From Klebsiella phage RCIP0020, in sequence record OR532814.1: 64,000 nt of DNA; one strand, given 5' to 3'. The translations under genes and the position numbers were made by a program. Of this stretch, positions 49,363 through 49,615 are shown piece by piece (the first letter of the stretch is position 1; each line of letters opens with the position of its first letter). Under the pieces are notes generated by a model. That model made no database searches, was not told where the DNA came from, and saw only the letters and a program-made list of their open reading frames with translations.

Positions 49363-49535
49363 ATTTCGATGTTAGGCGCGTAAGTAACGTTTACCTTATG
49401 CATAGTGCGGTATTTGTAAGCGGCTTTGTATGCATCGAGTTCAGTCGGAACACAGAAAGAGAAACCGTTGTCATAGCGTTCTGCGTTAGAAACTTCACAA
49501 CCAACTACAGCGGCAATATTTTTGTTCATGTTCAT
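49335..49535 (-). CDS. hypothetical protein
   Basis: ORF starting MNMNKNIAAV, downstream of the cassette at 49535-49615. Confidence 0.35.
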   Translation of the reverse strand: MNMNKNIAAVVGCEVSNAERYDNGFSFCVPTELDAYKAAYKYRTMHKVNVTYAPNIEMWLVQVYKA

Positions 49536-49615
49536 GGTGTTTTCCTTTCTCTGTTTCGTTTCGATGTGTGTAATATAACAAAGCCCCTGCACTAATGCAA
49601 GGGCTTTTTGATTAT
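49535..49615 (-). promoter_or_regulatory. stem-loop terminator plus promoter/leader cassette
   Basis: Minus strand reads AAAAAGCCCTTGCATTAGTGCAGGGGCTTTGTTATATTACACACATCGAAACGAAACAGAGAAAGGAAAACACCATG. Confidence 0.6.

Follow-up and report, generated by a model that had tools for sequence, protein, structure and literature searches.

Promoter early stem-loops (PeSLs) by definition combine a sigma-70-like early promoter with an A/T-rich stretch ahead of it and a stable stem-loop that has G/C tracts, and they fall into five subclasses by the position of the stem, one of which overlaps the -35 box (Arbiol 2010, PMC2839356). Experiments on the phages RB49 and phi1 demonstrated that PeSLs act as promoters and as terminators and that they form mini-circles; the crossovers of the RB49 mini-circles lie between the -10 box and the Shine-Dalgarno (SD) sequence or ATG, and it was speculated that the GGGG...CCCC stem is possibly bound by a recombination protein (PMC2839356). 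The same paper made a one-line 'PeSL-like' remark on the gene 43 region of RB43, with 'data not shown'. The class was extended to T4/PST and KVP40/nt-1, each with lineage-specific sequences (Comeau 2014, PMC4122927). Here we describe a family of PeSL-type units in a stretch of 64,000 nucleotides (nt) from Klebsiella phage RCIP0020 (sequence record OR532814.1), called the window below. A literature search found no PeSL description for Klebsiella phages or Slopekvirus.

The units of the window have every sequence-level property of a PeSL and belong to the -35-overlap subclass: sigma-70 boxes about 17 base pairs (bp) apart, a stable stem-loop overlapping the promoter, an intergenic context, multiple copies beside small genes, and insertions or deletions (indels) bounded by the elements. 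The terminator/promoter anatomy put forward in the original prediction is present and agrees with the published definition, both activities being predicted ones. We hold it highly probable that the units are Slopekvirus regulatory cassettes of the composite PeSL type, in which a Rho-independent terminator and a sigma-70 early promoter share about 45 bp and are followed by a conserved 5' leader, and which are also substrates of homologous recombination.

Relation to described PeSLs and lineage

The order of the parts is that of the RB49/phi1 PeSLs, which also occur as many co-oriented copies among small unknown genes, bound indels, and cross over in the same zone as here, from the -10 box to SD/ATG. 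The leader after the -10 box is alike as well (CAT(A)CCGAAACGA in RB49, CATCGAAACGAAAC in the window). The RB49 unit differs in reading AAAAAGTTGTTGACA-GGGGATC..GATCCCC-TATAAT, with the stem inside the spacer, whereas the stem of the window, AAAGCCC-TTGAC...GGGGCTTT, spans the -35 box and is flanked by A/T tracts as in a classical terminator. A profile of the window copies gave no RB49 match in the 49 kilobases (kb) searched (positions 100000-149000, about 30% of the genome, including a PeSL-dense region; best E 0.62). The likeness to published PeSLs holds for the definition but not for the RB49 sequence. RB49 has about 50 PeSLs, against about 8-10 per genome here, and activity and mini-circles are experimental for RB49/phi1 only, the units of the window being known from sequence.

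The PeSLs of nt-1/KVP40 and PST/T4 are likewise lineage-specific cassettes of distant T4-like groups that adjoin indels, and the nt-1 stem consensus, A3-4 G3-loop-C3 T3-4, follows the same plan of A-tract, GC stem and T-tract (PMC4122927). 'Degraded' half-PeSLs without the stem-loop, reported in the same work, resemble the hairpin-less partners described below. These systems differ from the window in hosts, lineages and hexamer consensus, and the -35 box was not reported in them as routinely fused into the stem. In the records of KP15 and KP27 (Maciejewska 2016, PMC5219037) the same physical elements stand at positions a, c', d and e as 'putative middle promoter' and 'terminator' features, which differ from the present description in being two separate automatic predictions with a 'middle' label; the paper has no mention of stem-loops, PeSLs or a link to gene shuffling. 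RB43 belongs to Pseudotevenvirus, the nearest outgroup, and that genus carries the same cassette family as the window. The elements are thus already in the KP15 record as unlinked promoters and terminators, and they are a clean natural illustration of a published mechanism, unsurprising to a specialist.

A 5-kb piece of the window was 100% identical to the Slopekvirus phages KLB13, RCIP0009 and P-KP2 and 98% identical to Matisse. The whole 64 kb is colinear with KLB13 at 99.1-99.7% identity, and the gene map of the window was transferred from KLB13. The next relatives, the Pseudotevenvirus phages RB43, RB16, Margaery and ENT3, were about 79% identical over about half of the sequence. RB49/phi1 (Krischvirus) appeared in no nucleotide search, nor among the matches listed when the copies were searched with blastn. 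The cassettes had been taken to support an RB49/phi1-type lineage; the window belongs instead to the Slopekvirus KP15/Matisse group, being 99-100% identical to Slopekvirus, and the RB49 PeSLs are a different sequence family. Since T4-like groups far apart from one another are reported to have PeSLs (PMC4122927), the presence of such elements is uninformative on lineage.

Copies of the repeated unit

The unit is about 57 nt long, and eight copies lie within the window, each an overlap of a predicted terminator hairpin with a predicted early promoter. All seven sites named in the original prediction hold the repeat after minor trimming of coordinates: an nhmmer profile built from these copies scored each of them at E 1e-16 to 1e-20, and it additionally recovered a weaker eighth copy. 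The copies are lettered a to h.

10703-10759, + strand: PeSL a, after the DNA ligase gene; -35 TTGACT 10716-10721, spacer 17 nt, -10 TATATT 10739-10744, ATG 10782; overlapping promoter and terminator features are annotated at the same place in KP15
21280-21334, - strand: PeSL b; -35 TTGACT 21317-21322, spacer 18 nt, -10 TATATT 21293-21298
30964-31020, - strand: PeSL c, after the nicotinamide mononucleotide adenylyltransferase gene; -35 TTGACT 31002-31007, spacer 18 nt, -10 TATATT 30978-30983, ATG 30950; stem a perfect palindrome
37581-37635, - strand: PeSL d, after the vs.1-like transglycosylase gene; -35 TTGACT 37617-37622, spacer 17 nt, -10 TATTAT 37594-37599, ATG 37565; without the CGAAAC leader
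47862-47918, - strand: PeSL e; CCCC/GGGG stem of 13 pairs, -35 TTGCCT 47900-47905, spacer 17 nt, -10 TATATT 47877-47882, ATG 47843
49557-49612, - strand: PeSL f; upstream stop codon 49612-49614, hairpin 49580-49607 (12-pair terminator-like stem, -19.3 kcal/mol, z -4.9), -35 TTGCAT 49595-49600, spacer 17 nt, TG and -10 TATATT 49572-49577, leader CATCGAAACGAAAC 49553-49566, ATG of the next gene 49535
53969-54022, - strand: PeSL g; -35 TTGCAT 54006-54011, spacer 17 nt, -10 TATATT 53983-53988, ATG 53955
11370-11425, + strand: PeSL h, the eighth copy; -35 TTGCAA 11377-11382, spacer 17 nt, -10 TATAGT 11400-11405, ATG 11440; -20.9 kcal/mol

The core pattern AAAGCCCTTG-N9-13-GGGCTTT was found at 6 sites, against 0.00 in 100 shuffles; the matches number 7 because PeSL c is palindromic. 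Every omitted copy was recovered by leave-one-out profiles (E 2.5e-10 to 2.4e-18), and an independent repeat finder returned the PeSL family as its three largest direct-repeat families in the window. Pairwise identity of the eight copies over about 57 nt was 66-84% (median 74%), so that the copies align beyond the sigma-70 consensus, as had been expected of them, and the identity is well above what two sigma-70 hexamers alone would yield. Shared beyond the hexamers are the A-tract, the GCCC/GGGC stem base, the TG of an extended -10 box (6 of 8) and the leader CATCGAAACGAAAC. No copy lies within the baseplate gene blocks, and every gene downstream of a copy is annotated 'hypothetical'.

At PeSL g the KLB13 annotation has an open reading frame (ORF) of 74 amino acids with a TTG start (53815-54039 in the window) that crosses the unit. 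Matisse annotates a 46-amino-acid version of it, from the ATG at 53955 just past the ribosome-binding site of PeSL g. The shorter gene call fits the cassette better.

Anatomy of the unit

All eight copies are intergenic, have the same orientation as both flanking genes and begin at most about a dozen nt past the upstream stop codon. After the stop come an A-tract of 3-6 A, a GC-rich hairpin with the -35 box in its 5' arm, the loop, the 3' arm and a T-run ending in TG; then follow the -10 box, about 7 nt, the leader, the ribosome-binding site and the ATG. GCCC stands between the A-tract and the -35 box. The stem base is GCCC/GGGC (CCCC/GGGG in copy e), the -35 hexamer is the upper 5' arm, and the loop has 3-4 nt. 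The original prediction put the -35 box in the loop, but it forms part of the stem, on its 5' arm.

The -35 hexamers are TTGACT in 4 copies, TTGCAT in 2, TTGCCT in 1 and TTGCAA in 1, with TTG invariant. A spacing of 17 nt, as first proposed, holds for six copies, and b and c have 18 nt. Six copies have the -10 hexamer TATATT, d has TATTAT and h has TATAGT; two of the variants originally listed, TATATT and TATTAT, are real, and the third, TTATAT, is merely a shifted reading of GTTATATT. The terminal TG of the T-run gives an extended -10 box in 6 of the 8 copies. In most copies the leader, (C)ATCGAAAC(GAAAC), begins about 7 nt after the -10 box, and the ribosome-binding site and ATG are located 27-37 nt beyond that box.

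Folding energies of the eight hairpins ranged from -17 to -21.8 kcal/mol, with z between -4.1 and -6.8; an equally good fold was seen in 0 of 200 shuffles. Sense RNA was more stable than antisense by 1-12 kcal/mol over the eight copies and by 3.5-12 kcal/mol in seven, because G·U wobbles turn into A·C mismatches on the opposite strand. Covariation was counted in 12 distinct paralogs and orthologs with a shared register among 23 variants (e- and h-type stems pair one position shifted), and in these pairing held in 99.3% of cells. Two apical pairs vary on both sides in a compensatory manner (CG/AU; AU/CG/GC; 11 cells). None of 500 shuffles reached the observed pairing, and sliding the partner by one column gave 59%. 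The TTG of the -35 box was constant across the 12 stems, its pairing partners alternating between A and G. The PeSL hairpin is a selected RNA structure.

The sequence features of an intrinsic terminator are present at the units, namely a GC hairpin and a U-rich tract after a stop codon on the transcribed strand. Among the loops, both in the window and in the orthologs, are tetraloops of the UUCG and GNRA types (TTCG, GTAA, GCAA), and the stems of e, g and f were the three longest terminator-like stems in 20 kb scanned. Terminators were called at these sites in three independent annotations, those of KLB13, Matisse and KP15 (by ARNold in KP15), and terminator-only sites in the window share the AAAGCCCC...GGGGCTTT design. 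The hairpins are putative terminators. An Rfam scan returned one tRNA match only and no RNA family over the hairpins.

The geometry of the boxes, a canonical -35 hexamer 17-18 bp upstream of the -10 box, is that of sigma-70, and the cassettes would function as early sigma-70 promoters. The -35 box, spacing and -10 box are kept in Pseudotevenvirus orthologs (about 79% coding identity), in which the loops vary, and also in a metagenomic relative that is only about 70% identical. The motif found by the KP15 annotators with MEME is the same motif; it overlaps the ARNold terminators and is labelled 'putative middle promoter'. A literature search for transcript-start or RNA-seq data on Slopekvirus returned nothing relevant.

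Leader and hairpin-less cassettes

The leader CATCGAAACGAAAC had 7 matches in the window, against 0.81 expected, and is shared by PeSLs and by promoters that have no hairpin.

11411-11424, 12032-12045, 42772-42785, 47099-47112, 47461-47474, 47858-47871 and 49553-49566: leader (ACACA)CATCGAAACGAAAC, in PeSLs and hairpin-less promoters
47441-47510, - strand: promoter-leader cassette without hairpin; TTGCAT, 16-nt spacer, TATCTT, then ACACACATCGAAACGAAACAGAC
12000-12063, + strand: promoter-leader cassette without hairpin (P11984); TGGTATAGT, then GTGTTCATCGAAACGAAACAGAC

The cassette at 47441-47510 is the direct-repeat partner of PeSL e (a member of repeat family D1), and that at 12000-12063 is the partner of PeSL h (family D14, 94% identical over 31 nt). 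The RB49 leader is a close variant that stands behind the -10 box of RB49 PeSLs, in intergenic regions between 14723 and 32333 of the searched piece, and the likeness stands despite no detectable nucleotide similarity elsewhere between the phage of the window and RB49. The leader would be a conserved initial-transcribed or 5' untranslated region (5'-UTR) motif across genera.

A small palindromic motif, TAGCAC-N4-TG(Y)TAAA, was seen at 11352-11368 (+), 11984-12000 (+) and 47144-47160 (-), 3 matches against 0.12 expected. At each of the three places it immediately follows a stop codon and has a promoter cassette downstream, and it also precedes the orthologs of PeSL e in Margaery, ENT3 and EcL22g. 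This motif could belong to the promoter as an upstream module, or it could bind a protein.

Gene gain and loss at the cassettes

Seven Slopekvirus genomes, chosen for structural diversity and not at random, were compared over window positions 8.5-56.3 kb, and 19 distinct indel events were found among them. The following ORFs between cassettes were concerned, the third in the comparison with ENT3.

47511-47843, - strand: accessory ORF of 110 amino acids, between PeSL e and the cassette at 47441-47510
11440-11983, + strand: three small ORFs, between PeSL h and the cassette at 12000-12063
10782-11351, + strand: ORF of 189 amino acids, between PeSL a and PeSL h

The 110-amino-acid ORF is missing in mtp5, KP15, ALF_ER54 and W8-3. 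At the short-form junction the hairpin and -10 box of PeSL e are joined to the leader of the other cassette with a 36-nt overlap, PeSL e being the recombination partner in a deletion of 47494-47854. Genomes with and without this ORF occur in Slopekvirus as well as in Pseudotevenvirus, and the cassettes on either side are the same: in the latter genus, Margaery has the long form, and ENT3 and EcL22g have the short one. The three small ORFs are missing in mtp5, KP15, mtp7, ALF_ER54 and ENT3; here PeSL h was the partner in a deletion of 11426-12015, with two different crossover points. Comparison of gene content between PeSLs in relatives, which the original prediction had proposed, thus found ORFs missing at chimeric cassettes, and these chimeras (e with the 47441 cassette, h with P11984) sit exactly at the missing-ORF junctions with overlaps of 31-36 nt.

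The sole large difference between the window and KLB13 over the 64 kb is a replacement at PeSL c, 131 bp versus 435 bp, and the longer KLB13 form holds an extra ORF of 64 amino acids. The longer form is the Pseudotevenvirus state, so the short form of the window at c is probably derived. Together with the flank just upstream, AATTTAAAACAAAGCCC, PeSL c matches at about 92% identity a copy that lies far away, in the dda-dexA region of the same genome kind, and the ancestral copy at the c position differs from it. This suggests that PeSL c came by ectopic exchange with the dda-dexA-region copy.

Between genera, the 189-amino-acid ORF is gone in Enterobacter phage ENT3, where a single PeSL stands behind the ligase gene, and the gene upstream of PeSL f is replaced. 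A length-changing breakpoint relative to ENT3 was found at 7 of 8 PeSL junctions versus 10 of 85 others (Fisher p 1.5e-5), a test that may overstate the link, since long intergenic regions at the cassettes are compared with genes that mostly abut. Cassettes are present at homologous junctions in relatives, as predicted, with five counterparts in Pseudotevenvirus (that of b being uncertain). Copies detectable by blastn occur at 7-10 places per Slopekvirus genome and at 2-4 per Pseudotevenvirus genome; the conserved PeSL subfamily has about 8-10 copies per genome. A scan of the IMG/VR database with an exact 19-mer returned T4-like contigs only, one of which, a short contig, is a more distant syntenic relative (about 70% identical) with PeSL d kept at the orthologous junction.

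Two candidates for transfer of the cassette to an unrelated phage were rejected. PeSL c had a 92% match to the 93-kb Klebsiella phage vB_CRKPVQ_22, but the record proved to be an incomplete Slopekvirus assembly, in which the matching segment belongs to the dda-dexA region. P60_7 (85 kb) is likewise a Straboviridae record. The matches are paralogous copies at other places in the same kind of genome.

Other sources of length variation were observed in the same genomes. Microhomology repeats of 16-19 nt, GAGGAATACATTATGAG and GTGAGGTTTATATGAT, lie at ribosome-binding and start sites (37140-37200, 37530-37570, 26679-26696); one deletes the gene at 37169-37565 in ALF_ER54, and another borders an ORF of 198 bp that is inserted in ALF_ER54 and W8-3. 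Such start-site microhomology is a second, PeSL-independent route of gene gain and loss. Genes for HNH or other homing endonucleases are inserted or substituted at 27070, 29476-29847 and 40660-40716 in Matisse, KP15, mtp5, mtp7 and ALF_ER54, and the window is without them. In W8-3 (39290-39410) the ortholog of PeSL e has a partial tandem duplication of the 5' arm (AAAAACCCCTTGCCATTGGC twice) with a fully compensated stem, which may be a slippage footprint inside a PeSL.

Proposed action and alternative explanations

Polymerase arriving from the upstream gene would transcribe the A-tract, a GC-rich stem of 9-13 bp, a UUCG- or GNRA-type loop and the U-rich tail UUUGUUAUAUU, and would there stop or be attenuated. 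The 5' arm of the stem would double as the -35 box, with loop, 3' arm and T-run forming the 17-18 bp spacer before an extended -10 box, TGnTATATT. Host sigma-70 polymerase would then start a new early transcript about 7 nt past the -10 box (AUCGAAACGAAAC...), around the A of CATCGAAAC, and this transcript would include the ribosome-binding site and the ATG for the small gene that follows. With a terminator and a fresh start in one cassette, each early transcription unit would be insulated from the next. The junction sequences show a further role: cassettes and hairpin-less promoters are co-oriented repeats with 24-36 nt of near-identity, between which phage homologous recombination deletes or inserts ORFs and leaves a chimera of both parents. 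As the partner cassette in both deletions has no hairpin, homology of the -10 box and leader suffices, and the exchange is probably plainly homology-driven and not the work of a hairpin-specific recombinase. The hairpin-less partners fit T4-type recombination on short homologies.

It is very improbable that the PeSLs are middle promoters dependent on MotA (the KP15 RefSeq record labels them as middle) instead of early promoters of the sigma-70 type. Features at a, c', d and e do read 'putative middle promoter; discovered using MEME', and TGCATTA in the TTGCAT-type copies is one mismatch from the T4 MotA-box core TGCTTTA. That near match, however, is in the wrong register; the TTGACT-type copies (a-d) are without TGCTT, and no copy has the TGCTT core. 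In T4 middle promoters the MotA box, centred near -30, takes the place of the -35 box and lies closer to the -10 box, whereas all copies here have a canonical -35 (TTGACT/TTGCAT) 17-18 bp before it. MotA and AsiA are absent from the KP15/KP27 annotation tables, and tblastn with T4 MotA (query 100% identical to Z48569; 1143 matches) gave no Slopekvirus among the matches listed. We give scarcely any credit to an element acting at the DNA level, whether as a cruciform or site to which a dedicated recombinase or homing enzyme binds, or as a selfish, self-moving repeat like a miniature inverted-repeat transposable element or a repetitive extragenic palindrome. The dispersal of the copies with shared flanks, and the speculation of Arbiol 2010 on a protein binding the GGGG...CCCC stem, would suit it. 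Against it, the pairing depends on G·U wobbles that form in sense RNA only, and 7 of 8 copies fold distinctly less well as antisense; every copy runs in the direction of transcription, both observed deletions had one partner without hairpin, and the relative position of most copies is unchanged from genus to genus. No terminal inverted repeats or target-site duplications were visible in the sequences read, no dedicated scan having been run.

Two further readings concern descent and the unit of exchange. The sites could be independently maintained terminators plus promoters, alike by constraint because AAAGCCCC-loop-GGGGCTTT, the hexamers and the leader permit nearly one way of overlapping, with no family by descent and no recombination of consequence. 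The terminator-only sites built on the same plan, the leader shared with hairpin-less promoters, the unchanged relative order of several copies across genera and the location of most within-genus indels elsewhere agree with this, but we consider it unlikely: the chimeric cassettes with their 31-36 nt overlaps are direct evidence of exchange between copies, PeSL c and its flank match the dda-dexA-region copy while the ancestral c copy is different, and breakpoints relative to ENT3 fall at nearly all PeSL junctions. Somewhat more plausible, though still doubtful, is that the segment from the -10 box to the leader (TATATT-ACACACATCGAAACGAAAC), and not the hairpin, is the functional module conserved in Slopekvirus, Pseudotevenvirus and Krischvirus. 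It would then be a phage-specific initial-transcribed or 5'-UTR signal and the actual recombination substrate, and the hairpin-fused cassette would be a distinct old family in concerted evolution by ectopic conversion, of which PeSL c would be an example.

Several observations weigh against composite cassettes that terminate, initiate and recombine. Only 3-6 T directly follow the stem, and with so short a T-run the elements may attenuate rather than fully terminate. A generic sigma-70 consensus scan was unenriched in the region (59 sites versus 49.9 expected), so the promoter call rests on conservation and register and not on hexamer matches; promoter and terminator activity in this phage are both deduced from sequence. 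For copies b, d, e, f and g, Pseudotevenvirus has counterparts whose relative order is the same, although neither flank of b aligns and its orthology is therefore uncertain. Given this conserved placement across genera, to call the cassettes mobile, as originally proposed, is an overstatement, and these five copies behave as conserved regulatory sites. Within Slopekvirus the enrichment of events at PeSL junctions was modest (4 of 8 versus 19 of 87 others, p 0.09), reaching p 0.01 when PeSLs and promoter-leader cassettes were pooled (8 of 14 versus 19 of 87). Moreover, PeSL cassettes had no part in 12 of the 19 within-genus events, which involved homing endonucleases or, at ribosome-binding sites or start codons, repeats of 16-19 nt. 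The idea that the cassettes mark positions of gene exchange thus holds insofar as breakpoints and chimeric cassettes coincide with them, and fails for those 12 indels.

Other features of the window

Two hairpins, AAAGCCCCTTCCTTTCGGTTGGGGCTTT, 94% identical, lie at 20253-20285 and 57901-57933, where + and - gene blocks converge, and have the look of terminators that act in both directions; the first is matched exactly over 35 nt in the record of a Citrobacter phage. Between divergent genes, a very AT-rich region of 369 bp (56744-57112) has many GATC motifs and two repeated strong sigma-70-like promoters, CTTGACC...GATCTATAATA, at 56822-56852 and 56938-56968. This may be a control or origin-like region.

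At 4263-4576 KLB13 annotates two tRNAs (Gln, Ile2), whereas ARAGORN and Rfam find one, tRNA-Met/CAT at 4270-4346; the KP15 paper reported tRNA-Met plus a second tRNA-Gln by tRNAscan-SE only (PMC5219037). A 60-nt direct repeat (22045-22104 and 25945-26004, 83% identical) covers the 5' ends of the - strand ORFs 21634-22104 and 25489-26004, which therefore have paralogous N-termini.

Significance

The PeSL concept is extended here to Slopekvirus, a large and heavily sampled genus used in phage therapy, and to the neighbouring Pseudotevenvirus. The more than 110 near-identical public genomes hold natural before-and-after pairs with chimeric cassettes, and such pairs could gauge the share of the cassettes, relative to homing endonucleases or start-site microhomology, in the turnover of accessory genes. 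The cassettes flag insulated early transcription units and correct some gene starts, such as that of the TTG-start ORF over PeSL g. They also mark spots for swapping engineered payload genes without disturbing the neighbouring genes.

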